Origin: an uncultured Verrucomicrobiota bacterium
Lineage (GTDB): Bacteria; Verrucomicrobiota; Verrucomicrobiia; Limisphaerales; UBA1412
Assembly: GCA_944389455.1 (NCBI GenBank)
Contig: CALXMK010000007.1
Coordinates: forward strand, 19,637 to 83,636
DNA length: 64,000 nucleotides
Direction of reading: 5' to 3'
Position numbers and translations under genes: made by a program. A model generated the notes under the pieces. That model did not search any database, had not been told where the DNA came from, and was given only the letters and a program-made list of their open reading frames with translations. Shown here piece after piece: positions 1 to 64,000 of the stretch (its first letter is position 1; every line of letters starts with the position of its first letter).

Positions 1-2700
1 GTTTATCATTATACTTTGACTTTGTGGCTGAGTTTGGAAAGAGACAGGAGTTGAATTTCCATAGTAGCCCATTTGGTAAATGTATTCGATTTGTTCAGCA
101 GTTAATGTGCTAAAGAAAATTGCAGCTTCATCAATTAAACCACTGAAACGACGATCTGTATTAACCATATCTCCGCCAATTGTAAAACTTGAGGTTAATG
201 TTATTGCAGTGTGATTAGCAGTGTTATGTGCGGTTGTTAAGTTACCGGCTGAATCTCCAAGATAGAAAGTAGCTTGAGTGGGAGAAACAGCCATTGCAAC
301 GAAATTCCATTGATCAATGGCCGGATAAAGACCACTTCGATAGTCATGATAGTTGTCGTTCCAGTGATAACAGAGTTGATTCCCTGCGATATTAAGTCCT
401 ACAGCACTCTTTCCTCGATCAAAGAGCAGTGTCGTATAATCGTTAATGGCTGAAGTTGGTTTAATCCATGCAATCATCGTGAGTTCAGAAGCCGTAGAAT
501 CTATTTTATCTGATGAAATGTAACCTTTACCATTTAGAGCAACAGATAGATCTGAGTCATTAATGATGGCTCCTGGTTCTCCGAGGGTACCCCATCCTTC
601 ATTGATGGAAGCATCTCTTCTGGCCACATATTCATAAAAGGTTGGATATTCTGTTTCTCCTAGTCGCCAATATGCGTAAGGATTTGAAGCAAGAACCGCA
701 CTTTCATAAGCAGTAGAGGGTTCAAAGAAGTTTATTATAGCTTCATCTGTTTGTTCAGAGTTTAGCACATTGCTAGCAACAGCGTAGTATTTGCCGGAGT
801 TTGCTGAAGTGCGAGCAATGGAATAAGTGTTGGATTGTGCTCCAGGGATTGGTTCTCCATCTTTATACCACTGCCAGGAAATAGGAGGGGTTCCGTTAGC
901 TTCTGCGGCTAAGATGTATTCACTATTTTCCATAGCATAGATTTCCATACTAACGGGACTTGTTAGAATAGCAACGGGATCTGCAACAGTTTCGGAAGAA
1001 CCGGTGATAACTGCTCTGTTGAAAGTAGCTTGAGTTATATCCGTTTCATATCGTGAATAAGTTCCTATTCCAAAGCGAATTCCTTCGTAAAAGGAAAAGT
1101 TCTTTTCTAGACAGAGTACATCATCTATATAAAATTGAGCAGTTTGACCATTAGCGACTATTTTAATAGTGTGACGGCCTTGATCGTTAAATCCAAAATC
1201 TGCAGTGGAAATGTCTAGAGGATTTCCGTTTCCAGTAGGAATGTCTAATTCATCTCCGGTTAATTTATTATAGTGCCAACCTTGGTAAGAGGTAGTTTCA
1301 GCGGATCCCCCGTCTCCAAGATCATCTATAATAATCCAATTGCTCATATCTTCATTATAAATACCGATAGCGCATCGTCCTCCAGAGCCTGTGTAAGAAT
1401 AAGATTCACGTTCGACTTCAAACACCAAAGGAGATACAGAACTGGCTTGAAAACTATCACGGGTAATTAGTGCTGAGCCTGGCCAGTAGTGACCTTCAGC
1501 TGTAACATTTATTGAGAGTTGGCTTTCATTTAAATTATATTCTGTTAAAGAGGTAGGGGTTCCACCAGTTGTATATTCGTAGGATCTGTTATTGATTAAC
1601 CAAAGATTGGTATTCAGAGTATCGCCATCAAATTCATCTTCCATTAGAATTTCTCCTATAACTTCTCCTAAAACTATTAGTTGTTGGTAGTTTATAGGAA
1701 TATTGGATTCAGTGGATATAGAGATAGTGGTTTTACCTATTCCTCTTTTATAGATAGGAATATTGTATTCACTGGAATTGGGACTTAGTGTAATTGTTTT
1801 AGTTGTTCCAGTGTCAAATTCTGCGATAGATGGATTTTCAATATTTAAAGTTAGTGTAGTATCACTACTTTGTTGGGAAAATAATGTCTTAAAGTTAATA
1901 GTATTTTCAGAACCTATAGCGCCAGGAAGACTCATAGTTTCTTTTGAAAATAAAATAAAATTATTTGCACCTGTGATTAGAGCATTATCGAAAGATGCGT
2001 CTACCATATCGTTTTCGGCACGTGCAAAGACTCCAAAACCAAAACGAATTCCTTGTGAGTATGGAAATTTAACGGTAGTTCCCAAAGTATCATCAACATA
2101 AAAGCTGGCTGTTTCGCCATTGGCTTCTATTTTAATTCGATGCTGTTGTTGGTCTGTAAATGCCTCTGTTGCCAAAGAAGAGATTTGGATCCCAGAGCCT
2201 TGATTATTATCGCCTGTTTCGCCGATGTAACGATTATATCCCCAACCGTAATAAGTGGATGAGGAGGGAGTTGTACCATCTGTAAACTCAGAGAAAATAA
2301 TCCATCTATCTAATTCCTCATTGTAAATATAAAATGCGCAACGTCCACCACTGCTGCTAGAGGTGTTATAATAAATACGATCAATTTCAAAAGAGACGGG
2401 AGCTTGAGGTGATGCGTTGTAGCTATTTGAGGTAACAAAGGTTGCTCCTGGCCAATAGGCAGCGGAAGCAATATAGTTCATATAAACAGAATCAGATACT
2501 TGATAATTCAGAGTACCAGAAGCGGTTGTATTTGATAAATACTCGAAACTTCTTTCATTAAGTACCCAGTCGCTGCTAATTTCAGAACCTGAGAAATCAT
2601 CTTCAAATAAAATGTCAGCTGAAGTAGATATAGCTAATAATGTTAGTATAGGAACTATCATTATCTTATAAAGATTTTTGTTAGAATAAATCATTTCCAT
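1..2700 (-). CDS. Large secreted/surface protein, 3'-truncated by window edge: signal peptide, two copies of a ~215-aa beta-rich domain, Ig-like domain, LamG/concanavalin-like domain
   Basis: Not in ORF track (no stop inside window). Manual translation from ATG 2700 (or 2694): MEMIYSNKNLYKIMIVPILTLLAISTSADILFEDDF...; Ig motif PPISWQWYKDGEPIPGAQSNTYSI; LamG motifs YAYWRLGE and FSGLIDEAAIF; ends ...FQTQPQSQSIMIN at the edge. Frame spot-checked on several lines, not codon by codon. Confidence 0.85.
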   Translation of the reverse strand, partial: MEMIYSNKNLYKIMIVPILTLLAISTSADILFEDDFSGSEISSDWVLNERSFEYLSNTTASGTLNYQVSDSVYMNYIASAAYWPGATFVTSNSYNASPQAPVSFEIDRIYYNTSSSSGGRCAFYIYNEELDRWIIFSEFTDGTTPSSSTYYGWGYNRYIGETGDNNQGSGIQISSLATEAFTDQQQHRIKIEANGETASFYVDDTLGTTVKFPYSQGIRFGFGVFARAENDMVDASFDNALITGANNFILFSKETMSLPGAIGSENTINFKTLFSQQSSDTTLTLNIENPSIAEFDTGTTKTITLSPNSSEYNIPIYKRGIGKTTISISTESNIPINYQQLIVLGEVIGEILMEDEFDGDTLNTNLWLINNRSYEYTTGGTPTSLTEYNLNESQLSINVTAEGHYWPGSALITRDSFQASSVSPLVFEVERESYSYTGSGGRCAIGIYNEDMSNWIIIDDLGDGGSAETTSYQGWHYNKLTGDELDIPTGNGNPLDISTADFGFNDQGRHTIKIVANGQTAQFYIDDVLCLEKNFSFYEGIRFGIGTYSRYETDITQATFNRAVITGSSETVADPVAILTSPVSMEIYAMENSEYILAAEANGTPPISWQWYKDGEPIPGAQSNTYSIARTSANSGKYYAVASNVLNSEQTDEAIINFFEPSTAYESAVLASNPYAYWRLGETEYPTFYEYVARRDASINEGWGTLGEPGAIINDSDLSVALNGKGYISSDKIDSTASELTMIAWIKPTSAINDYTTLLFDRGKSAVGLNIAGNQLCYHWNDNYHDYRSGLYPAIDQWNFVAMAVSPTQATFYLGDSAGNLTTAHNTANHTAITLTSSFTIGGDMVNTDRRFSGLIDEAAIFFSTLTAEQIEYIYQMGYYGNSTPVSFQTQPQSQSIMIN

Positions 2701-27101: not shown

Positions 27102-27941
27102 TTATGGGGCATGAGTAGCCCAGATAACTGTTAGAAAAATAGGTTCAGCATCGAGCCAATTGTCTGCATTTGCAGAAATTGATTTGGATTCTTGATTTTT
27201 AGGGAGTAATCGCAGTCCAGAGACAGCCTTTATGGCATCGTTATCAGCAGATGGTAAGCCACATGATGAAATTAGAGTAGCAGAGAAAATCAATCCATCT
27301 TTTCCAAGCCAGGCTTTGATAATGGTATTTTTAAGTTCCTTATCCCAGGATTGAGTGGGAATATTCAATTGTGGAATTTTCCAGGAGGAGAGAGTCTTTT
27401 CGGAGAGTCTGAGTTCAGATTGAGTGCGATGAGTGCGAGAAACCGGTTCTTTTAGTTTCATAGTGGGAATATAAGGATCAGCTTGAACTCTAATAGACTC
27501 TGCGACAGGAAGCATAAATTCGGATAATTCTTGTCCCAAAAGTTTATTTGGTGCGTTAATTGTGTAAAAAGGTTGTCTAGGCATGGATGGTGTATAAAAA
27601 GATTGTTGCTTATCATTCCAAATAAAACCAGATATGCCATTTTGATGTACTCCAGCATAAATGCGAGGATCAAATGTACGCAGGAATTCTTGAAGAATAG
27701 GATTTGTAGAGATAGATATTCCTGGAATGAAAAGTGGATGTTGAATTGAGGTGGGGTTACGAGGAGTCAGCGGTGAGGAATTCAACAAAATATAGAAAAA
27801 TAGGATTTGTGAAATAAAAAATCCGCAGATAACAATAATCCATTTGCCAAGTACCCATTCACCAATCTTATAGGTGCGGAGATTTTTGTGGAGTAAGGCA
27901 AGCCCGAGCAGAAGTTTTTTATTTGAATCCTGCAGTGTCAT
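27102..27941 (-). CDS. TonB C-terminal-like energy transducer
   Basis: Single N-terminal TM, Pro-rich linker, C-terminal DG..ISSCG..AD..AI; follows exbB/exbD-like genes. Confidence 0.6.
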   Translation of the reverse strand: MTLQDSNKKLLLGLALLHKNLRTYKIGEWVLGKWIIVICGFFISQILFFYILLNSSPLTPRNPTSIQHPLFIPGISISTNPILQEFLRTFDPRIYAGVHQNGISGFIWNDKQQSFYTPSMPRQPFYTINAPNKLLGQELSEFMLPVAESIRVQADPYIPTMKLKEPVSRTHRTQSELRLSEKTLSSWKIPQLNIPTQSWDKELKNTIIKAWLGKDGLIFSATLISSCGLPSADNDAIKAVSGLRLLPKNQESKSISANADNWLDAEPIFLTVIWATHAP

Positions 27942-28393
27942 GGAAGTGAGGAGCTAGTGTTGGAAGTAGGGTTGTTTTCTACAGTTTGATTAGGATTAGT
28001 AGCTATAAGGATATTGGTTAGCCCTGCTTTATAGGTGAGCGCTCCTAGATTTGCAAAAGTATTAATTGAAGCCTCTTGATCAGAAACGATTACAACAGAG
28101 GTGACAGGATTTTTCTCTCGAGCTCTTTCCAATGTTACCATTAAGTTGTCAAGTGTAACATTCTTGCCATTAAAATAGTATTGGTCATTTTGATCAATAC
28201 CAATCACAATGGTAGGGCCTACAATTCCTGGTAATTGGGCTGTATCTGGAGAAGGTAATTGGATAGAAACACCAGGCTTGAAAATAATTGAGGATTGAAG
28301 TAGCAGGAAGAGAATGATTAACCCCAAGATGATAGAGAAAGCCATCCCATCAAATTTGTTTCTTAGAGGAGAAAGACTGCGTGTATACTTCAT
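27938..28393 (-). CDS. exbD: ExbD/TolR family protein
   Basis: N-terminal TM, IQLP, IGIDQNDQYYFNG, VIVSDQEA. Confidence 0.75.
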   Translation of the reverse strand: MKYTRSLSPLRNKFDGMAFSIILGLIILFLLLQSSIIFKPGVSIQLPSPDTAQLPGIVGPTIVIGIDQNDQYYFNGKNVTLDNLMVTLERAREKNPVTSVVIVSDQEASINTFANLGALTYKAGLTNILIATNPNQTVENNPTSNTSSSLP

Positions 28394-28403
28394 GAGAGAA
28401 AAT

Positions 28404-29051
28404 TTACTGCTGCAGTTTGTTATCAGAGTTGTTGTGCTCTTCAGAAGGGTTTAGGAGAAATTGAACAATATCAGAAGAGGTTTTCTCCATATCCAGCACG
28501 ATAGTATTAACCCTTTCTATAAGATAGTTGTAAGCAGCACGGGCTATAACAGAAAGAGCTAATCCAAGCGCCGCAGAGATTAAAGCTGTCCAGATTCCTT
28601 CGCTCAGCATGCTGATATCACTGAAAGGACCATTGATTTGTGTAATTCTGAACATTTTCATCAGCCCTAGCACTGTTCCTAAACACCCCAGTGGCTGAGC
28701 TATTTCAGCAATAGTAGCAAGCCAAGTCAAGCGAGCTTCCAAACGAGGAACTTCGACTAAACCTGCTGATTCCAGAACATCCTCAATGTTCTTATTCCCT
28801 TGTTCACTGTTGAGAATTGCCGTTTTAACTAGTCTAGCAACAGGTCCCGGTGTTGCATCACAAATTGAGATGGCTTCTATAATATTCTCACGGCGAAGAA
28901 CATTTTTGACTCCAGTTAGAAATTCTCGAGAATCGATTCTTACACGATGATAGTGTAAAAATCTTTCTAGAAAAATAGCAGCAGCAAACGCACCTAAGAC
29001 TAGGATTAACCAAGAAATAGCACCAGCATTATCAAAGAATATTTGCAGCAT
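28404..29051 (-). CDS. exbB: MotA/TolQ/ExbB proton channel protein
   Basis: IFLERF, LATIAEIAQPLGCLGTVLGL, GIWTALISAALGL. Confidence 0.85.
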   Translation of the reverse strand: MLQIFFDNAGAISWLILVLGAFAAAIFLERFLHYHRVRIDSREFLTGVKNVLRRENIIEAISICDATPGPVARLVKTAILNSEQGNKNIEDVLESAGLVEVPRLEARLTWLATIAEIAQPLGCLGTVLGLMKMFRITQINGPFSDISMLSEGIWTALISAALGLALSVIARAAYNYLIERVNTIVLDMEKTSSDIVQFLLNPSEEHNNSDNKLQQ

Positions 29052-29121
29052 GATGTTGTAGAATGTGCTTATTTTTCAAAGGGATAAAACAAAAAGGAAA
29101 GAATCATTTCATAAATTAATT

Positions 29122-30312
29122 TCAGAATAGATTCAGACTTCTATGCCTTTCAATAATTGATTTGCTTAAATTGTCAAGTTCTGCAATCGTTTCGGATGTT
29201 CCCGCTCCTTTTGCGAAGACTGGTGGCAATATTTCCAAAGAGAGTCCTTGTAAAAGACTTGAGATTTGAATTGGGATCTTTGTCCCGCTCCAACCATAAG
29301 ATCCAAATAGGGCCGCAAATTGAGCTTTAGGCTTGAGAGCTCCTACCAAAAGTGCAATATAAGCAGCCAGCGGATGTGCTCCGGTCAAAATACAGCCTGT
29401 ACCAATAGCAATCGTCGCTGAATCTACCAGTTCACCGGCAACTCTGCCTAAATCAGCACGGGTAAGATCGTATGGAGCCACGATAATTCCTGCTTCAGTT
29501 AGTAATTGGGTAAGATGCTCTGCCATTCGTGCTGTTGCACCGTGAGTAGAAACCCAGGGCATAAGGACTTTATTTTTTGGAGGTTCATCAACCCATTCCT
29601 CGTATAGAGAAATAGCGATTGAAGGATTTTTAAAAACAGGTCCGTGACTTGGACAGATGATTTGAGGATTAAGGCTCTTAACAGTTTTAAGGTGTTTAGA
29701 GACTTGTATACGATATGGCATCATGATTTGTGCATAATATCGTTTCATTGGCTCATAGAAAAGGCATAGATCATTTGTGAATATATCCGAAACTGCCAAG
29801 TGTGAACCAAACAGGTCACAGGGAAAAAGTATTTGATCTTCCTGAAGCCACGTCATCATAGTTTCGGGCCAATGAATCCAAGGAGTTAAAATAAATTCTA
29901 ATGTTTTTCCACCTAAATCAAGTGTTTCACGATCTTTTACAACAATGATCCGGTCCTGAGGGATTTGTGGCATCAGGGTTAAAAGCAATTCTTTACATTT
30001 TTGATTTGTGACCAGTTTACAGTCTGGATAGAGGGCAAGAATATCTGGAATGCAGCCAGAGTGATCCTGTTCGGCATGATTGGAGATAACATAATCCAAT
30101 TGAGAGAGGGAAGCTGATTTGAGATTATTTAAAAACAGATGTTTTAATTCTGGTTCAACAGTATCAATTAATGCTGTTTTTTGGCTTCCCTGAATTAGAT
30201 AGGAATTATATGTTGTTCCTTCAGGTGTTGGAATAAGGGCATCAAAAAGCCTGCGATCGTAGTGAGAGACTCCTACATAAGAAACGTTCTTACAAATTTG
30301 TTCTTTTGCCAT
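29122..30312 (-). CDS. fprA: FprA-type flavodiiron protein
   Basis: GTTYNSY, HAEQDHSG, HWPE, DLFG, PSHG; C-terminal flavodoxin with FGSYGWS. Confidence 0.92.
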   Translation of the reverse strand: MAKEQICKNVSYVGVSHYDRRLFDALIPTPEGTTYNSYLIQGSQKTALIDTVEPELKHLFLNNLKSASLSQLDYVISNHAEQDHSGCIPDILALYPDCKLVTNQKCKELLLTLMPQIPQDRIIVVKDRETLDLGGKTLEFILTPWIHWPETMMTWLQEDQILFPCDLFGSHLAVSDIFTNDLCLFYEPMKRYYAQIMMPYRIQVSKHLKTVKSLNPQIICPSHGPVFKNPSIAISLYEEWVDEPPKNKVLMPWVSTHGATARMAEHLTQLLTEAGIIVAPYDLTRADLGRVAGELVDSATIAIGTGCILTGAHPLAAYIALLVGALKPKAQFAALFGSYGWSGTKIPIQISSLLQGLSLEILPPVFAKGAGTSETIAELDNLSKSIIERHRSLNLF

Positions 30313-30341
30313 AAAAAATAACCCCCCAGAAAATACTGGGG
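30313..30341 (-). terminator. Terminator-like hairpin between FHA gene and fprA
   Basis: CCCCAG-N6-CTGGGG stem, followed on minus strand by GGTTATTTTTT directly before the fprA ATG. Confidence 0.5.
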
Positions 30342-30352
30342 ATAGGGTGATG

Positions 30353-30817
30353 CTATTTAAGTAAAAGCCAAAGTATGATTAAGATAACAACTGCTCCGCC
30401 TCCCGCAAGAAGATAGATATTCATTTTGTTATCTTTTTTCTTAAAAGCAGGATTTATCGCAGGAGTTCCAGCCCCTACCTCATTGAGTTTAATTCCTCCA
30501 CGGTGTGAGGCCATCACTTTTTTAAAAGGAGTGCCATCATCAAGTCTGAGCTCACATTGTCCAAGGCGAAGTATCATACCAGCTTTGAGCTGTGCTTCCG
30601 TGATCTTTTCGTCATCAATATAGGTGCCGTTTGTAGAGTTAAGATCTTTAATGGTTAAAGTGTTGTCTTTAAAAACGATTTCGCAGTGATGTCCCGAAAC
30701 TGATCCTTCTGGGATACAAAAATTATTTTCATCAGCACGTCCCACAGAGAAAGTTCCCTCTTTGAGTTCGAATTCTTGTCCTTTAAGACTCTCTGTCAGA
30801 ATAATTAGTTTCGGCAT
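30353..30817 (-). CDS. FHA-domain protein with C-terminal membrane anchor
   Basis: VGRA, SVSGHH, DLNSTNGT motifs; terminal hydrophobic helix. Confidence 0.88.
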   Translation of the reverse strand: MPKLIILTESLKGQEFELKEGTFSVGRADENNFCIPEGSVSGHHCEIVFKDNTLTIKDLNSTNGTYIDDEKITEAQLKAGMILRLGQCELRLDDGTPFKKVMASHRGGIKLNEVGAGTPAINPAFKKKDNKMNIYLLAGGGAVVILIILWLLLK

Positions 30818-30937: not shown

Positions 30938-33313
30938 TTATTCTATGTCAACCCGATAGAAGAATTTATTGTCTTTGAGGTTGACTTCATAAGGGCTTTG
31001 AGCCTCTTTGACTCGAGTCCATTCTTTGTTGTCTTGACTGCTATAGAGCACGCCTGTATAAGTTAAAATCAATTTTCCATTCTCAAAACTATAGCGAATA
31101 GAAGGAATACTCAATATTGTTGAATCTCCTTCTTGAGGAATAAGGGCGATTGGAATGCCATGCCAAAGATCATTTTCAATCTCCCATCCGATAGTGCTAT
31201 CGTCATAGTAGATAACAAAGTCAGGAGAAACACCTGCAAAAGAGATGTCCATAGCAGCTGGAGCATTTCCTAAAAATGTTATTGATTGCAGTGAAGAGCA
31301 TCCGTAAAAAGCATAAACACCTAAAGAAGTGAAATTTGTACTGCAGATAACATTTGTTAGTGAACCACAATAGCTGAAAGCGTATTGGTTAATACGCCGA
31401 ATGGTATCCGGTACTTCAAAAGAGGTAATCGGGACATAAGAGAAAGCAGATTCTCCAATGGTATTTACGCTTTCAGGTAGCGTGGTTGAAGAAGCTTTTC
31501 CAGGAGGATAGGAGAGAAGTATTTCTCCATTCTTGCTGAGCAGGAATCCATTTTGGCTGGAATAGTTTTCATTAGCAGGGTCAACATTGATGTTTTCCAA
31601 GCTGGAACAATTGGCTGCCCATTCTGAGGAGAGCAGGGTGACTGAAGCTGGAATATTAATTTCCGTCAGAGAAGAACATAAAGTGAATGCTCCGGTCTCA
31701 ATTGTTTCAACAGATTGTCCAATTATAACATTAGTTATTGATGAGCAATTAGCAAACGCATTTTCTTCAATTTTTAAAACGGTATCACTAATTGTTACAG
31801 AAGTGATATTGGTATTACCATTGAAGGCATCATGATTAATAGAAACCACTGGATAATTATTGATATCCGAAGGAATAGTAACAACAGTGTTAGTCCCAGA
31901 ATAAGAGACAATTACAACACTCTTATCTTGAATTAGATATCTAAAACCATCCGGAGTTTCTAAGGGACGAATTGCACGAGCTGTATTGATGCGACCTCCA
32001 GTTGTACATCTTCTCTTCATGGCAGGAACAGAATCTACACTGTAAAGAATACTGTCTTTGATGTCTTTATAGGAGTATTCATTTTCTCCATATTGACTAA
32101 TACAGAGTGCAGCAACACCCGCAACAAAAGGACAGGCCATAGAGGTTCCTGACATATAGTCATAGCTATTTGCAAAGTTAGGATTGTCAGGTTTATAAAT
32201 TGTAGACCATATGTCTGTACCTGGCGCAAATAAGTGAACAGTCTTGGCTCCATAATTAGAGAATGTACTAATGTTGTCCTCAGAGTCACTGCTACCTACG
32301 GAAATAATGTTATCCAGCTTTGTACAGTAATTCGATGGATAATTAGGAGTCGTGTCGTTATTAGAGGTTTCATTACCAGCTGCACAGACAAACAATATGT
32401 TGGCTTCTTGGCATTTCCTCAGTTCTTCTAAGTAAAGCCGGTTGTAACCAGGTCCACCAAGACTCATATTAATAACCTGAGCATTATTTTTACGTGCATA
32501 TGCAATAGCTTCAATAATGTCAGAGTCTGTTCCAGAGGCTGAATTCCCATTCTTATGTAAAGCTTTGCATGTTATAATTCTCACATTCCAATTTACTCCT
32601 GCAACACCTATTCCATTGTTTCCATGTCCACCAATGATGCCAGAGACGTGTGTTCCATGGCCATGATCATCTTGGGGATCGCCGGTAATTTGGCCATTCT
32701 TGAAGGATGCACCATAGACATCGTCGACAATTCCGTTGTTATCGTTGTCGATGCCGTCTCCCGGAATTTCTCCTTCATTGATCCACATATTATCGATGAG
32801 ATCTTCATGCTGGTAGGAGACGCCGGAGTCGACAACTGCTACTATAACTTTTGATGAATCGGTTGATGTATCCCAAGCATCGAGAGTCTCGGTTATTTCA
32901 AAATGATAGAATTTATCTTTTTCTTTAAAAGCAGGGTCATCGGGGATTGTTTGGCTGGCGGTGCGGATATAATCCGGTTCAGCGTATTCTACCATGCCAC
33001 TCTTAAGATATTCTTTGATTTTATCATGAACATTTTCAAGTGGATTAAAGTTAATAATGTGCCAATCATTATTGGCAGCATTCAAAATGCGAGTCGACTG
33101 AATTCCTTGAAGTTTATTAAATTCCCCCAGAGTTTTCAGGGAAATTCCTTGTTTGGGTTTAACTAAAATTCTTCCGGGATAATAGGGCGCATTGGCCTCT
33201 GCCGCATTTGCGGTAACAAAACCACTCAATAAAAGTGAAATCAGACAGAGGTGCTTGGCTACCGTTTTCATCTTTCTCGTCAAGAAAGAGATATGTAAAA
33301 ATCTTTTCTTCAT
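30938..33313 (-). CDS. Secreted S8 (subtilisin-like) peptidase with BspA-type leucine-rich repeats and C-terminal tail domain
   Basis: Signal peptide; VAVVDSG, HGTHVSG, AAGN, GTSMACP; repeats such as IEENAFANCSSIT, IETGAFTLCSSLTEINIP. Confidence 0.93.
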   Translation of the reverse strand: MKKRFLHISFLTRKMKTVAKHLCLISLLLSGFVTANAAEANAPYYPGRILVKPKQGISLKTLGEFNKLQGIQSTRILNAANNDWHIINFNPLENVHDKIKEYLKSGMVEYAEPDYIRTASQTIPDDPAFKEKDKFYHFEITETLDAWDTSTDSSKVIVAVVDSGVSYQHEDLIDNMWINEGEIPGDGIDNDNNGIVDDVYGASFKNGQITGDPQDDHGHGTHVSGIIGGHGNNGIGVAGVNWNVRIITCKALHKNGNSASGTDSDIIEAIAYARKNNAQVINMSLGGPGYNRLYLEELRKCQEANILFVCAAGNETSNNDTTPNYPSNYCTKLDNIISVGSSDSEDNISTFSNYGAKTVHLFAPGTDIWSTIYKPDNPNFANSYDYMSGTSMACPFVAGVAALCISQYGENEYSYKDIKDSILYSVDSVPAMKRRCTTGGRINTARAIRPLETPDGFRYLIQDKSVVIVSYSGTNTVVTIPSDINNYPVVSINHDAFNGNTNITSVTISDTVLKIEENAFANCSSITNVIIGQSVETIETGAFTLCSSLTEINIPASVTLLSSEWAANCSSLENINVDPANENYSSQNGFLLSKNGEILLSYPPGKASSTTLPESVNTIGESAFSYVPITSFEVPDTIRRINQYAFSYCGSLTNVICSTNFTSLGVYAFYGCSSLQSITFLGNAPAAMDISFAGVSPDFVIYYDDSTIGWEIENDLWHGIPIALIPQEGDSTILSIPSIRYSFENGKLILTYTGVLYSSQDNKEWTRVKEAQSPYEVNLKDNKFFYRVDIE

Positions 33314-59411: not shown

Positions 59412-62400
59412 TCATTTTATTGTTCTATACATCAGGATCGGAAAATCGTTTTTGAGTAAATAAGGTGAAACTGCATCAGGAATATTTTCCCAATGAATTA
59501 GATTAGTACTGCATTGAAGATTACCGGTAAACACAAGATAAAAATTTCCGTTTTCGTTCTGAAGCAGAACTTCTGGAGGGAATTCTTGCTTTGGATTATA
59601 AAAAATATCGGTTCCCTGTTCGTAGTTTATAGCGGCTTCTTCCTCAGAAATTGTTCCTTGGTAAATTCTAAATTCATCGAAATCCCCACAAAAATAGGGA
59701 TCTGCTGCAAATTGAGATTTACCGATCCACATATTGGGGCAACCACCAAATTGAGTTGGATTGAATTCTTGAAAATCTTCTCCAGCTTTATTGCCGTCAA
59801 TATAAATGGTACCTAGTTGAGTAGCACTGTCATATGTATAAATGATATGGTGAAATACGCCGTCTCCTATTGGAAGGGAAGCTGCAGATACAATTTGTTC
59901 AATATTATTCACACGAACTCCATTTCGCATATCACCATTATCCGAGGCCCAAGTCATCATACTGTACTGTAGCCCTTCCACAATTTGTCCATCACTTTCC
60001 CTACAGTTGCCAAAGTCAAATAGACGCATCCAACTGCCTTTGTTTTTATTGGCTCTCACCCACATTTCAACAGTAAAAGAGTCAAAGTTACTGATTAAAT
60101 CCGGGGGAAGAGCGACAAAAGATCCTTCTGTATAAGATTTCTGATCGCCTTCTCCATCTAGTGATAAGATGTTTCTGGAAACAGAGTTTTCAGTTATTTC
60201 AGAAAGCTTGGCATTCCCATATAGAGTTCCATGGGCTTCTGATATTGAATCAAATATGATAAGAGTATTATCTAAGAACGCCGGGGAAAAATTGTAACGA
60301 TGTTTGAGGGTAGCATTTTTATATTTTATTATCTCTTTTACAGTTAATTGAATATGCTTGCTCGAAATTTCTCCATATTTATTAGCGATTTTTACATAAT
60401 AATATCCGGAATTACTGATTGCAGCAGGATCAATTGTCAGTGTGGCGTTTGTTTCTCCAAAGAGAGGAGAATTGTTTTTATGCCATTGGTATGTTAAAGG
60501 TTGGATTCCTGAAGCCTTTACAGAGAAGATAGCTGTGCTCCCTTCGTAGGTTGCTATATCCTCACTAATAGATTCAATGAAAGGTTTTCGACTATCAGGA
60601 ATAATGTCTGTTCCAGCAAGATAATTTTTGTGGATTTCATCAGCTAAGAGGGTGCCGCTGTAAATACGAAATTCATCGAAATCTCCGGCGAAATACGGAT
60701 CAGCACCCCACAATGATTTGCCTATCCACATATTGGTCATAGAACCGAATTGAGAAGGAGAAAATCTTTGTAGACCACTTGCTGCTTCAATTCCGTTTGT
60801 ATAGAGAGTCCCCATTTTATTATTTCCATCATATACATAGACAATATGGTAAAAATTTCCATCTCCAATTGGAAGTAGAGGGGCAGTGAGTTGATCTTCT
60901 TCATTTTCAATTCTTACTCCGCTGCAGAGGTAGTGATCGTGTCCTTTCCATGCAAGCATAGTATAATTATGACCAGTATCGATATTACCATTTGAGTGTG
61001 TATTGCAATTGCCAAAATCAAATAGTCTCATCCAATTTCCTTTATCTTCATTAGCTCTTGCCCACATTTCAATACTATATGAATGATATGGACTAATTAG
61101 ATTTGGAGGCAATGCAACAAAGGAGCCATTTGTAAAGGAATAGGTATCACCTATGCCATCAAGTCTTAGATAACCATTTTGTATATAAGCAGATCCATAA
61201 AGTTTTCCGTTTGCTTGGTTGATAGAGTCATATGCAATGAGCTGATCTTCGACAAAATTTTCATTGAAGCTGTAACGATGAAGCAGTATGGCATTTTTAA
61301 AAATGGGAAGAGGTTCTATTGTTAAAAGTATTTCGTTACTGCTAATAGTTCCCTTCAGATTGGAAAGAGTAACAGTATAGACTCCTTCATCCTCTAATGA
61401 AGCACATTCGATTGAGTAATAAGAATTGGTGGCATCCGGAATTGGAATTTCGTCTTTATACCATTGATATTTTATGGGAAGGGAGCTGGAGGCTATGATT
61501 TCTAATAAAATAGGTTTACCTTCTGTAACGGATAGATTTTTAGGGGAGGAGATAATTTCGGGAAGGAAAATGACTGGAGGATCGTCTTCTCCATTTATGC
61601 CAGTTCCAGGAGTGCCACCTATAAACAAACTTTGTTTCCAATTTTCAGGAGTACTCCATAAGGACATGGCAGAAGCCGGATCTATTACAGTAAGAGAATA
61701 TCCCTGGCGGTCTGTGGAAGGATACCAACTGTTGCTGTAGGTATAAGTAAGGATTACTTCTCCAATATTGTTGCAGAGGGTAATGGTTTCACCTTTTCTC
61801 GATAAGTTGGACTTATATTCTCCACGAATATATATATCATTGCTATTGGGATAGCGTTTTGCAAATGCTTCTGTATTTTTAACTAAAACAAGATATTCAC
61901 CAGCTCTCAGAGGAGTATCAGGGAATATATAGTCGATTCCTGAAGTAAATCGACACCCTTTTAAGTTGATGGATTCTTCTCCACAGTTTCTAAATTCAAT
62001 CCATGCGAAATCATCTTGAGTATATCCCTCAGCAGATTCTTCCTCAGAAAGATTAGCTGAGTACATCATTTCTGTAATTCTTAGTTTTGAACAATCATAA
62101 TTATCATTTTCTCTCGGATTAAATTCACTTAGAGCACTCCAGACTCCATTATTAAGAGTTCTGGCCATTAGATGAGTATCGTCAGATAGGATAATTGAGC
62201 CTGTTTTCCAATGAGTAGGATCTTTTTGAGCGGTAATGGAAATATCGAATCCAGAGTTGCTGTCAGTATCAATTGTGACAAGATTTCTCCCTTGACGTAA
62301 GGTATTAAGTGGAATTTTCCCAGGAGTCGTAATAATCCCGTTGATCGAAATGGTTCCTATTCCTTTAATTACAGATAGAGTTGCAGATTTTATATCATCT

Positions 62401-64000
62401 ATTGTATCTAACACAAATGACTTACGCAGGTAACAATGAGAGGAAGTAAATCCCAAGGCTGGCTTTTTGATTTCCCATTGGTAGTCATTATAGAGGCGAT
62501 CTGTCCAGTAGACTTCAGAGTAATTCCTCTGGGGATCTGGAGGCACATTACTAGGATAGCATTTCCATTCAGAATCTGGTGAGATGAGAGTAATTTCTTC
62601 AGACGTTTTGGAAATCGTTTGCATATGAAGTTCCAGAGCTGCTGAATTCAATCCCCCGCCTGGCAGGCGAGGGTCACTTCCATTACGAGTGTAATAAACA
62701 GGTGAATCGGCTTTTATTATAGCAATGTTATTCTGCAGTTCTATAGACGGAGGATTAATATCAGGATACCAATTGTATTTTTTTAAGAGAGAAATCATCT
62801 CATATTCACGGCCTACTAAGAAAGCGTCTGTAACAAGGTGTAATGCTGATTTCCATGTTTCATAAGTATATCCACCTCCAAATTGATTTCCCCAGCGAGC
62901 AGATTCAGCAACAATAGGGTTGTCTAATTTCTTTTCGCGTGAATTCCATCTGTTAATGACATTAGTGAATGAAAGAGCTCCATTATTGAGATAATGTTTG
63001 GTTGCTCTATCAATAAATTTGTAATAGTACTCTGGATGATTTATGAGTCTTCTATGTAGATCCATTGGATTAAAATCTTCCCATCTAGACCAATAAGAGG
63101 AATTTTTGAAATAGTCGATAGAGTCTTCAATTCCTAGATGTGCTCCCAAAGTTAATTCTGCATCATGTTTTAACCATTTAAATCCCTCTGGCGCAGAACG
63201 ATGATAAACAGCGCTTACATTATTTACTACATTAATCCAAGAGAGGGGGGAATCCATATCTGCTGTATAGAGGGTAAGGAGGATATAATCAATTAGATTT
63301 TCCTCATCTAGCAGAATAGGGAGTTCTTCATTCAATGTTCCATCCGGATTCATGCCTTTTACTTTCCAATAGTTGTTTTCATTCATTCCGCTGAATCCCT
63401 GAAGAGCATATTGATAAAATTGTTTATATGCATCTTCAGTGCCATCTTTAATTTCAATAACTCGCTGACTGGAAGATTTGAGAGCATCCCATTCTTCGCT
63501 TGTGCCGCCTAGATATGATGAGGCAAAATCCGCTTCAGCGCGTTCTTGTGTCATATAAAGTCCCCAATAGACCCCATTGATATAGACATGATGATAGCGG
63601 CTTCGGGTGTAAAGATTTCCCATGTCTCCCTGAGAATCTCTTGCAAATACTTCACGGATAAAAGTGTTTTGCCAGGGAGAATCAACGTTGGAAGACCAGG
63701 CGTTATTTTGTTCTGTTCTCAGATCGATCTTACTGAATGTGCTGACTCCTTCGGATTCGAAAAGAGGGAAGTTTAAATTCCCCTCATATTTTGAACCGAA
63801 GATTAGCCGCAGTGATTTTTTAGGAGAGGCTCGTCCAACGGCACCGCGAATACGAACTCCTGCATTAATTTCAAAATTAGTATTACTTTTAGGGTCAATG
63901 TATTCCACAGAAATAGGGCGTTCCCATTGTTCTCCAGATTGATTATAGTTATCGAAGATACCGGTTTGACCATATAAATTGGAAGAATCGGTTGAAAGAG
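59412..64000 (-). CDS. Very large surface protein, 5'-truncated by window edge: CotH-like kinase, lamin-tail domain, two Ig-LamG modules, C-terminal tail
   Basis: Frame is open from 63998 (LSTDSSNLYGQTGIFDNYNQSGEQWERPISVEY), so the track start 63908 (GTG) is internal. CotH-like INGVYWGLYMTQER and WLKHDAE; LTD-like ITEMMY..WIEFRN; duplicated Ig-LamG. Confidence 0.85.
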   Translation of the reverse strand, partial: LSTDSSNLYGQTGIFDNYNQSGEQWERPISVEYIDPKSNTNFEINAGVRIRGAVGRASPKKSLRLIFGSKYEGNLNFPLFESEGVSTFSKIDLRTEQNNAWSSNVDSPWQNTFIREVFARDSQGDMGNLYTRSRYHHVYINGVYWGLYMTQERAEADFASSYLGGTSEEWDALKSSSQRVIEIKDGTEDAYKQFYQYALQGFSGMNENNYWKVKGMNPDGTLNEELPILLDEENLIDYILLTLYTADMDSPLSWINVVNNVSAVYHRSAPEGFKWLKHDAELTLGAHLGIEDSIDYFKNSSYWSRWEDFNPMDLHRRLINHPEYYYKFIDRATKHYLNNGALSFTNVINRWNSREKKLDNPIVAESARWGNQFGGGYTYETWKSALHLVTDAFLVGREYEMISLLKKYNWYPDINPPSIELQNNIAIIKADSPVYYTRNGSDPRLPGGGLNSAALELHMQTISKTSEEITLISPDSEWKCYPSNVPPDPQRNYSEVYWTDRLYNDYQWEIKKPALGFTSSHCYLRKSFVLDTIDDIKSATLSVIKGIGTISINGIITTPGKIPLNTLRQGRNLVTIDTDSNSGFDISITAQKDPTHWKTGSIILSDDTHLMARTLNNGVWSALSEFNPRENDNYDCSKLRITEMMYSANLSEEESAEGYTQDDFAWIEFRNCGEESINLKGCRFTSGIDYIFPDTPLRAGEYLVLVKNTEAFAKRYPNSNDIYIRGEYKSNLSRKGETITLCNNIGEVILTYTYSNSWYPSTDRQGYSLTVIDPASAMSLWSTPENWKQSLFIGGTPGTGINGEDDPPVIFLPEIISSPKNLSVTEGKPILLEIIASSSLPIKYQWYKDEIPIPDATNSYYSIECASLEDEGVYTVTLSNLKGTISSNEILLTIEPLPIFKNAILLHRYSFNENFVEDQLIAYDSINQANGKLYGSAYIQNGYLRLDGIGDTYSFTNGSFVALPPNLISPYHSYSIEMWARANEDKGNWMRLFDFGNCNTHSNGNIDTGHNYTMLAWKGHDHYLCSGVRIENEEDQLTAPLLPIGDGNFYHIVYVYDGNNKMGTLYTNGIEAASGLQRFSPSQFGSMTNMWIGKSLWGADPYFAGDFDEFRIYSGTLLADEIHKNYLAGTDIIPDSRKPFIESISEDIATYEGSTAIFSVKASGIQPLTYQWHKNNSPLFGETNATLTIDPAAISNSGYYYVKIANKYGEISSKHIQLTVKEIIKYKNATLKHRYNFSPAFLDNTLIIFDSISEAHGTLYGNAKLSEITENSVSRNILSLDGEGDQKSYTEGSFVALPPDLISNFDSFTVEMWVRANKNKGSWMRLFDFGNCRESDGQIVEGLQYSMMTWASDNGDMRNGVRVNNIEQIVSAASLPIGDGVFHHIIYTYDSATQLGTIYIDGNKAGEDFQEFNPTQFGGCPNMWIGKSQFAADPYFCGDFDEFRIYQGTISEEEAAINYEQGTDIFYNPKQEFPPEVLLQNENGNFYLVFTGNLQCSTNLIHWENIPDAVSPYLLKNDFPILMYRTIK

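Follow-up and report, generated by a model that had tools for sequence, protein, structure and literature searches.

In the 64,000-nucleotide stretch of an uncultured, gut-type Verrucomicrobiota genome analysed here (the window; positions 19637-83636 of contig C7 in a 2.62-Mb, 42-contig, 41% GC assembly), an S8 (subtilase) protease and a CotH-type protein, both apparently exported, end in the same soluble C-terminal tail. We are highly confident that this tail is a small beta-sandwich resembling a fibronectin type III (FN3) domain, built from strands A, B, C, C', E and F without the FG loop and G strand, uncatalogued, and present as a single copy at the C-terminus. As to its role, we lean somewhat towards a shared handle for sorting or surface docking that would act after Sec export.

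A common tail on two exported proteins

The tail of the S8 protease lies on the reverse strand (30938-31084 of the window) and translates as ENGKLILTYTGVLYSSQDNKEWTRVKEAQSPYEVNLKDNKFFYRVDIE followed by the stop codon, and that of the CotH protein, also on the reverse strand (59412-59555), translates as ENGNFYLVFTGNLQCSTNLIHWENIPDAVSPYLLKNDFPILMYRTIK followed by the stop codon. When aligned without gaps from ENG to YR, the two are identical at 15 of 47 positions and reach a BLOSUM62 score of 57, which was matched by none of 200,000 shuffles (shuffle mean -46, standard deviation 15, z = 6.9), and a BLASTP comparison of the S8 tail with the CotH tail gave E = 2e-8. The gapless common tail proposed in a first-pass annotation of the window is thus borne out, as is its description of the carriers, namely an S8 protease with a BspA-type leucine-rich repeat (LRR) region and a CotH protein with lamin-tail (LTD), immunoglobulin (Ig) and two LamG domains. 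The first-pass annotation had also set the tail apart from PEP-CTERM and LPXTG signals for want of a transmembrane helix, and neither tail sequence does contain a hydrophobic helix; the motif, hydrophobic helix and basic tail that together make up transmembrane-type sorting signals (PEP-CTERM, LPXTG, MYXO-CTERM) are absent from both. Its estimate of a 44-aa tail beginning at ENG needed more adjustment. Both intervals given above, which are those of the first pass, fall within the respective tail domains and cover the shared stretch, but the folded unit would begin about ten residues upstream and span about 54 aa rather than 44-48, because the A strand (SIRYSFE) upstream of ENG belongs to it.

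The S8 protein, at 791 aa, consists of a fervidolysin-like prodomain, a Peptidase_S8 domain, BspA-type LRR_5 repeats and the tail, and the CotH protein, with the domain order CotH, LTD, Ig and two LamG, starts with the signal peptide MTKKHFYLFFLLFSTLIQPVYS; Sec-type signal peptides begin both proteins. The true start of the S8 protein is likely Met15 of the listed open reading frame (ORF), because a 99%-identical database protein, P0151, is 777 aa long.

Conservation was assessed against the positional orthologue of the S8 protein (P0159, 44% identical), in which the gene order S8-FHA-ODP-ExbB-ExbD is kept (several metagenomes), and against ten more full-length homologues (P0152-P0163, 42-51% identical) with the same S8 and LRR_5 architecture. 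Averaged over these eleven proteins, identity to the window S8 protein is 53% in the S8 catalytic domain, 49% in the tail, 41% in the LRR region and 21% in the linker between the LRR region and the tail, and the position of the stop codon is constant among them. The tail is likewise kept in the CotH orthologues P0275, P0276, P0278 and P0283. Judged by this pattern of conservation, the tail is shown to be a real, selected domain. No description of it was found in the literature searched.

Beyond the two proteins, a hidden Markov model (HMM) built from their tails alone matched about 20 further ORFs in the genome, and a genome search with a broader 52-sequence profile (A2) found 54 ORFs with one tail copy each. 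In 51 of these 54 ORFs, no more than 3 residues separate the end of the tail from the stop codon, the distance in the exceptions being 13, 23 and 90 residues, and a C-terminal regular expression gave 48 matches at true C-termini and 0-1 once the proteins had been shortened by 30 or 130 residues. A signal peptide or signal anchor is present in every carrier whose N-terminus is complete; the predictor used was crude, and its "negatives" were contig-edge fragments or visible signal peptides that it had missed. The passengers are unrelated to one another and include BspA-LRR adhesin-like proteins, CotH/LTD proteins, three S8 proteases, LamG giants, an Ig_3 protein, a transglutaminase-like protein and a GLUG protein. 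The expectation of the first pass that the tail would recur in the genome, and would be restricted to the C-termini of signal-peptide proteins, therefore holds. W...FYR tails, those of the S8 and CotH proteins among them, occur as single copies on exported proteins and end in [FY][FY]R with the stop within 3-7 aa, and the W and R are invariant across 52 aligned tails, long forms from metagenomic S8 proteins included.

Two further observations concern individual carriers. C7_17, a gene for a 1597-aa LamG-type protein, is partly inside the window (1-2700, reverse strand), and its product ends in an FYR tail (NSQYFRLAL before the stop) located just beyond the window start. BspA-LRR paralogues with near-identical linker and tail (PETGEISFTLTFTGTLQES.DGITWSD...NQNRFFR) lie at the ends of contigs C10, C13, C25, C26, C29, C32 and C35. 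This paralogue family, recently expanded, evidently breaks the assembly, so that the number of tail genes given here is a minimum.

Fold, relatives and spread of the tail

The overall confidence (pLDDT) of the AlphaFold2 tail models was 84 when 20 sequences were supplied and 86 when 52 were, reaching 91-96 within the final 50 residues; the linker upstream was modelled at low confidence (pLDDT 62-66). The predicted strands of the S8 tail are A (SIRYSFE), B (KLILTYT), C (VLYSS), a C' bridge, (E)WT(RV), at the invariant Trp, E (YEVN) and F (FYRVD). The models thus show strands A, B, C, the C' bridge, E and F rather than the full seven-strand FN3 order A-B-C-C'-E-F-G, and the stop codon falls 3-7 residues past the invariant Arg of the F strand. 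By hhalign, the tail profile aligned with bacterial FN3 units at 96.2% probability (E = 2.4e-9, 67 columns), and the FN3 units ran 27 columns past the end of the tail, through the FG loop and G strand. Taken together, the sequence, the DSSP assignment and the profile alignment suggest that the edge of the F strand would be left open and unpaired.

The tail falls under no model of Pfam or NCBIfam, whether the full proteins (E <= 0.01) or 20 isolated tails (E <= 10) were used as queries, and at these thresholds neither the two full proteins nor the 20 tails matched fn3 (PF00041) in Pfam. A tail profile search of 1.84 billion representative proteins, in contrast, returned 2,693 matches at E <= 1e-3. 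Among the best 150 of these, 127 were proteins with many internal copies, those scanned being fn3 or Ig_7 (PF19081) arrays, and all 19 strong single-copy matches lay within 11 residues of the C-terminus; P0006, with nine fn3 units, was matched at E = 3e-38. Internal hits, which the first-pass annotation had named as a sign against a terminal tag, therefore do occur at the superfamily level, where tandem fn3 and Ig_7 arrays lead, but not within the single-copy tail subfamily. Foldseek searches of the PDB with two tail models yielded no significant match (best E 0.12 and 0.20), with FN3 domains at the top of both lists at similarly non-significant values (E = 0.1-0.2). Among the nearest known counterparts of the tail are FN3 units (PF00041) of the bacterial "ERS.DG..W ... 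YYRV.A" subtype, which share with the tail the strand order A to F, the positions of W and R, and homology at the profile level. Those units sit in internal tandem arrays, whereas the tail is single, terminal, below the Pfam fn3 threshold and without FG loop and G strand.

Verrucomicrobiota have a longer "W...FYR" tail, of which the S8/CotH tail is, by its sequence, a compact variant; in a joint alignment, the compact form has deletions in two loops (B-C and C'-E) and an E strand marked by "SPY". Of 120 S8-protein homologues, 43 end in a tail, and so do 40 of 68 homologues of the Ig-LamG/CotH region; it is mostly the longer form (G..G..Y.LE.S.DL..W.......DG...F......RFYR....P before the stop), and the stop always lies 3-7 residues after the Arg. 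A word-indexed database search with the S8 tail region gave a single near-identical protein as its sole match, and the tail would for this reason seem to have diverged too far for 5-mer seeding. A contig scan with the S8 protein, in a set from which close genomes were excluded, yielded distant S8 or LRR proteins of other phyla and nothing else. At least one match to the broad profile was present in 66 of the 121 genomes sampled from the phylum (42 of 68 genera), and in this phylum-wide comparison the present 2.6-Mb genome had at least 46. The compact form is dominant in the genus of the window, with 18-57 profile matches per genome and best E-values of about 1e-15 to 1e-19, against 0-20 matches and best E-values of 1e-10 or worse in other families of the order. 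The W...FYR tail family is widespread yet patchy in the phylum and expanded in this genome. The view that the tail is a lineage-specific tag was not upheld, as the wider family of which it is a compact variant occurs in these 66 genomes and on many metagenomic S8 and LamG proteins.

Homologues of the passengers in other lineages carry other modules at the same end position. These are C-terminal domains (CTDs) of the T9SS (type IX secretion system), of type A in P0316 and P0328 and of type B in P0336 and P0338, SLH domains in P0320 and P0325, dockerin-like repeats in P0317, and Cys-rich, transmembrane and basic CTERM-type anchors in P0197 and P0228; some passenger homologues end in complete FN3 domains with a G strand. 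The comparison of the tail with T9SS CTDs and dockerins drawn in the first pass, as soluble modules at the extreme C-terminus, is apt in that homologous passengers elsewhere carry exactly such modules there. Similar to the tail, the T9SS CTDs of Bacteroidota (type A, Por_Secre_tail, PF18962/TIGR04183; type B, CHU_C, PF13585) are small C-terminal beta-sandwiches of Sec-exported proteins with unrelated passengers, numbering dozens per genome, and the extreme C-terminal placement of the tail on signal-peptide proteins is theirs as well. Bacteroidota homologues of the Ig-LamG region carry T9SS CTDs where proteins of the Planctomycetes-Verrucomicrobia-Chlamydiae (PVC) group carry the tail. Dockerin and SLH modules, which serve docking in Gram-positive bacteria, are terminal, non-catalytic modules by which diverse exoenzymes are tethered to a scaffold at the cell surface, as is proposed for the tail, but differ from it in fold and motifs: the tail has no SLH motif, and the duplicated Ca-binding loop-helix repeats of dockerin (PF00404) are absent from it, with no dockerin match from single tails against Pfam at E <= 10 and an all-beta tail model.

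One Ig/LamG homologue, P0327, ends in SGIYFYRITLGNSYAKTGRLVLN, a YFYR strand plus one more strand. Its C-terminus presumably resembles a type A T9SS CTD, and it also resembles an FYR tail to which the strand that the tail lacks has been added; this may be coincidence or may point to a remote relation between CTDs and the tail.

The features discussed are listed in Table 1. Downstream of the S8 gene (27938-30817 of the window, reverse strand) are genes for an FHA-domain protein with a C-terminal transmembrane helix, a metallo-beta-lactamase-fold protein of the flavodiiron/ODP type, ExbB and ExbD.

Table 1. Positions of the tail domains, their carriers and related features (window coordinates unless a contig is named).
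Feature	Coordinates	Strand	Basis or remark
C-terminal tail domain, S8 protease (aa 738-791 plus stop)	30938..31102	-	Translation; HMM E = 2e-30 and 1e-22; AlphaFold2; hhalign
Poorly conserved linker between LRR region and tail (aa 716-737, ending PIALIPQEGDSTILSIP)	31103..31168	-	21% mean identity; pLDDT 62-66
BspA-type leucine-rich repeat region (LRR_5), S8 protein	31214..31849	-	Pfam PF13306, E = 1.3e-39
Subtilase (Peptidase_S8) catalytic domain	32036..32854	-	Pfam PF00082, E = 1.1e-55
Probable Sec signal peptide MKTVAKHLCLISLLLSGFVTANA, S8 protein	33203..33271	-	Sequence
Whole S8-LRR-tail gene, ORF as listed	30938..33313	-	791 aa
C-terminal tail domain, CotH/LTD/Ig/LamG protein (last 57 aa plus stop)	59412..59585	-	Translation; HMM E = 3e-30 and 2e-18
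Second LamG (Laminin_G_3) domain, directly upstream of the CotH-protein tail	59634..60125	-	Pfam PF13385
CotH-LTD-Ig-LamG gene, continuing past the window end	59412..64000	-	Full protein 1832 aa (P0271, 100% identical)
HX9DG prepilin-like genes beside LamG giants with FYR tail (examples)	C1:120931-126927; C3:120538-129645; C4:50464-57748; C15:54194-60172; C25:23253-28950; C12:33957-35779		

Candidate roles of the tail and the search for machinery

The reading towards which we lean can be set out as follows. Tailed proteins would be exported by Sec and lose their signal peptides, as the presence of those peptides suggests; the passenger would then fold in the periplasm with the tail held on a linker, a region that varies strongly among the homologues. 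The terminal domain would be the handle that these proteins have in common, used to route them across the outer membrane, to retain them on it, or for both, and it would probably act through the unpaired edge of the F strand and the free C-terminus. The first pass had proposed a secretion, attachment or docking tag, and what we find, a recurrent soluble C-terminal module on signal-peptide proteins with unrelated passengers and without a Pfam or NCBIfam model, agrees with it, although the role itself is one that we infer.

Several results weigh against a sorting or docking handle. No tail was found at E <= 1e-4 in 55 of the 121 sampled genomes of the phylum, so the tail is not a universal system. 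Nothing significant came out of the structure searches (best E = 0.1-0.2). Domains of the FN3-like kind frequently act as mere spacers, and since ordinary bacterial FN3 units typically have the invariant W and R as well, these residues need not mark a binding site. As to partners, none of the conserved neighbours of the S8 gene (FHA, ODP, ExbB/D) is recognised as connected with secretion, the four other FYR-tailed S8 loci, on long metagenomic contigs, all lack a pilin or secretion neighbour, and no receptor or machinery for the tail was identified.

An inventory of secretion genes in the genome revealed three pseudopilin clusters and a giant secretin-like protein, and machinery of the type II secretion or type IV filament kind is the only outer-membrane translocation apparatus recognised in it. 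The secretin-like gene (C2:193119-200555) lies downstream of a GspG-to-GspM-like pseudopilin cluster and is cut by the contig end; its product, of at least 2,478 aa, combines a GspD N0 domain with many successive Secretin_N-type repeats and is unusually long for a secretin. PEP-CTERM, considered as an alternative system in this genome, was set aside with only three small candidates.

Eight genes in the genome encode HX9DG-type prepilin-like proteins (GFTLIELLVVIAIIAIL..., with an N_methyl domain, a weak DUF1559 match and H-x9-DG near the C-terminus), and six of these flank an FYR-tail gene, against 0.45 expected, a count reached in none of 20,000 permutations. The tails at these loci all belong to the LamG-giant subtype ("LEVAE..GPW"), which is distinct from the S8/CotH tails. 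On another contig, in the region C21:3331-27938, an MSHA-like filament operon encodes a T2SSE+MshEN ATPase, a PilT-like and a second ATPase, a GspF-like protein, five prepilin-like proteins and a 1280-aa PilX_N protein, and is directly followed by the gene for a signal-anchored S8/LamG protein of 3293 aa (C21_12) that ends in two to three tandem FYR modules (KLRFFRVLRNR before the stop). Its place after the operon corresponds to that of PilY1/MshQ, and it lacks the PilY1 propeller.

These gene neighbourhoods, together with a published precedent, raise the possibility of beta-strand augmentation between the tail's last strand (xFYRVxxx-COOH) and the pilin-like components of type IV filament or type II secretion systems (HX9DG prepilin-like proteins, PilX/GspK-like minor pilins), a reading to which we give limited credence. 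A pilus or pseudopilus would in that case be loaded with tailed proteins, display them or expel them, just as the last ~10 residues secure the PilC/PilY1/MshQ adhesins. For PilC/PilY1, experiments have found that the strand at the extreme C-terminus completes the sheet of the minor pilins PilK/PilX, the same completion is predicted for MshQ, and the terminal motif of these adhesins consists of an aromatic residue, an Arg and then hydrophobic residues (bioRxiv 10.64898/2026.02.14.705861; PMC13711793). The FYR tail is similar in that a large exported protein ends in a beta-strand with an aromatic-Arg-hydrophobic pattern, and a tail without a G strand would leave the F edge free for such pairing. 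The PilC/PilY1 adapter, however, is a free peptide of ~10 residues after a beta-propeller, whereas the FYR strand is modelled by AlphaFold2 as an integral and confident part of a folded sandwich. In addition, about 54 tails face only about 8-26 pilin-like genes. PilY1/MshQ-type adjacency to minor pilins, moreover, was seen only for the LamG-giant subtype and C21_12; the S8 and CotH genes, the locus of the positional S8 orthologue and the four other S8 genes have no pilin-like neighbour, and the linkage could belong to the LamG passenger and not to the tail, because it is limited to the LamG-giant tail subtype. The dedicated machinery that the first pass took the tail to imply was accordingly not found, neither the S8 orthologue nor the four other FYR-tailed S8 genes having a secretion or pilin neighbour. 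A dedicated adjacent partner for the S8 passenger class was also considered and rejected, as no pilin or secretion neighbour of FYR-tailed S8 genes was found in five other lineages.

The same idea can be stated more generally, and equally tentatively, for the PVC group as a whole, with the G-strand-less FYR tail as a cis-acting docking element for machinery of the type IV filament type. Its exposed F strand would pair with the incomplete sheet of pilin-like proteins, both the HX9DG/DUF1559 prepilins, an expanded family, and PilX/GspK-like minor pilins, and dozens of exoproteins per cell would be loaded onto pseudopili, either for export through a secretin or for display at the filament tip.

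A passive role, in which the tail would be a terminal FN3-like spacer or stability cap without any address function, spread among surface-protein paralogues by recombination at the 3' ends of genes, appears unlikely to us. This role would accommodate the clear relation of the tail to FN3, the ordinary complete FN3 domains with which some S8 homologues terminate, the near-identical tails of the many carriers that are recent paralogues, and the finding of no machinery. A spacer, however, need not be single-copy, always last and ended at the same residue in the more than 130 proteins examined, nor would it give a reason for the tail to be conserved like the catalytic domain while the adjoining linker drifts, and it would not be expected at the position where homologues hold T9SS CTD, SLH, dockerin or CTERM anchors.

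We consider it improbable that the tail binds a ligand or oligomerises, either as a module similar to a carbohydrate-binding module (CBM) for host or dietary glycans or by edge-to-edge self-pairing into surface assemblies. Carbohydrate binding is common among the small beta-sandwiches found at the C-termini of secreted enzymes, an exposed edge strand lends itself to dimerisation, and one tail gave weak F5/8-type-C matches (E = 5e-4), but the passengers (proteases, kinase-like CotH proteins, LRR adhesins, transglutaminase) are too diverse for one substrate, CBMs are not confined to the last residues of a protein, and the conserved residues of the tail are the structural ones of FN3 units. That the tail is a divergent T9SS CTD exported by a type IX system is scarcely credible: it shares the layout of signal peptide and C-terminal beta-sandwich, and 5hfs and 7pq4, both T9SS CTDs, gave the best TM-scores with the first tail model only (0.48-0.51 over 54 residues; for 5hfs_A, TM 0.48/0.51 with a root-mean-square deviation of 3.4 over 54 residues), but the Foldseek E-values of about 0.7-1.7 (0.7 for 5hfs_A) are not significant, neither of these CTDs is among the 50 matches listed for the second model, PF18962, TIGR04183 and PF13585 were not matched even at E <= 10, the tail ends one strand before a CTD does, and the T9SS is, to our knowledge, found only in Bacteroidota and allies, with none known in this phylum.

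Significance for surface sorting in Verrucomicrobiota

The literature searched contains no account of how Verrucomicrobiota and related bacteria direct folded proteins to the cell surface or into the medium, and for type II secretion substrates in general we know of no recognised signal. The tail domain offers a direct, testable handle on surface sorting in these bacteria. About 2.8% of the ORFs of this small genome bear it, among them proteases, adhesin-like LRR proteins and CotH-type proteins. Annotation would gain as well, since a large share of what gut and environmental Verrucomicrobia export or carry at their surface would be flagged by a Pfam or NCBIfam model built for the tail. Should the link to pilins be true, this exported and surface proteome would be connected to type IV filament machinery. 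Docking across the PVC group, if it occurs, would extend the strand complementation known from PilC/PilY1/MshQ from one tip adhesin to a whole secretome, and would give the HX9DG prepilin-like family, for which we found no role described, a function.

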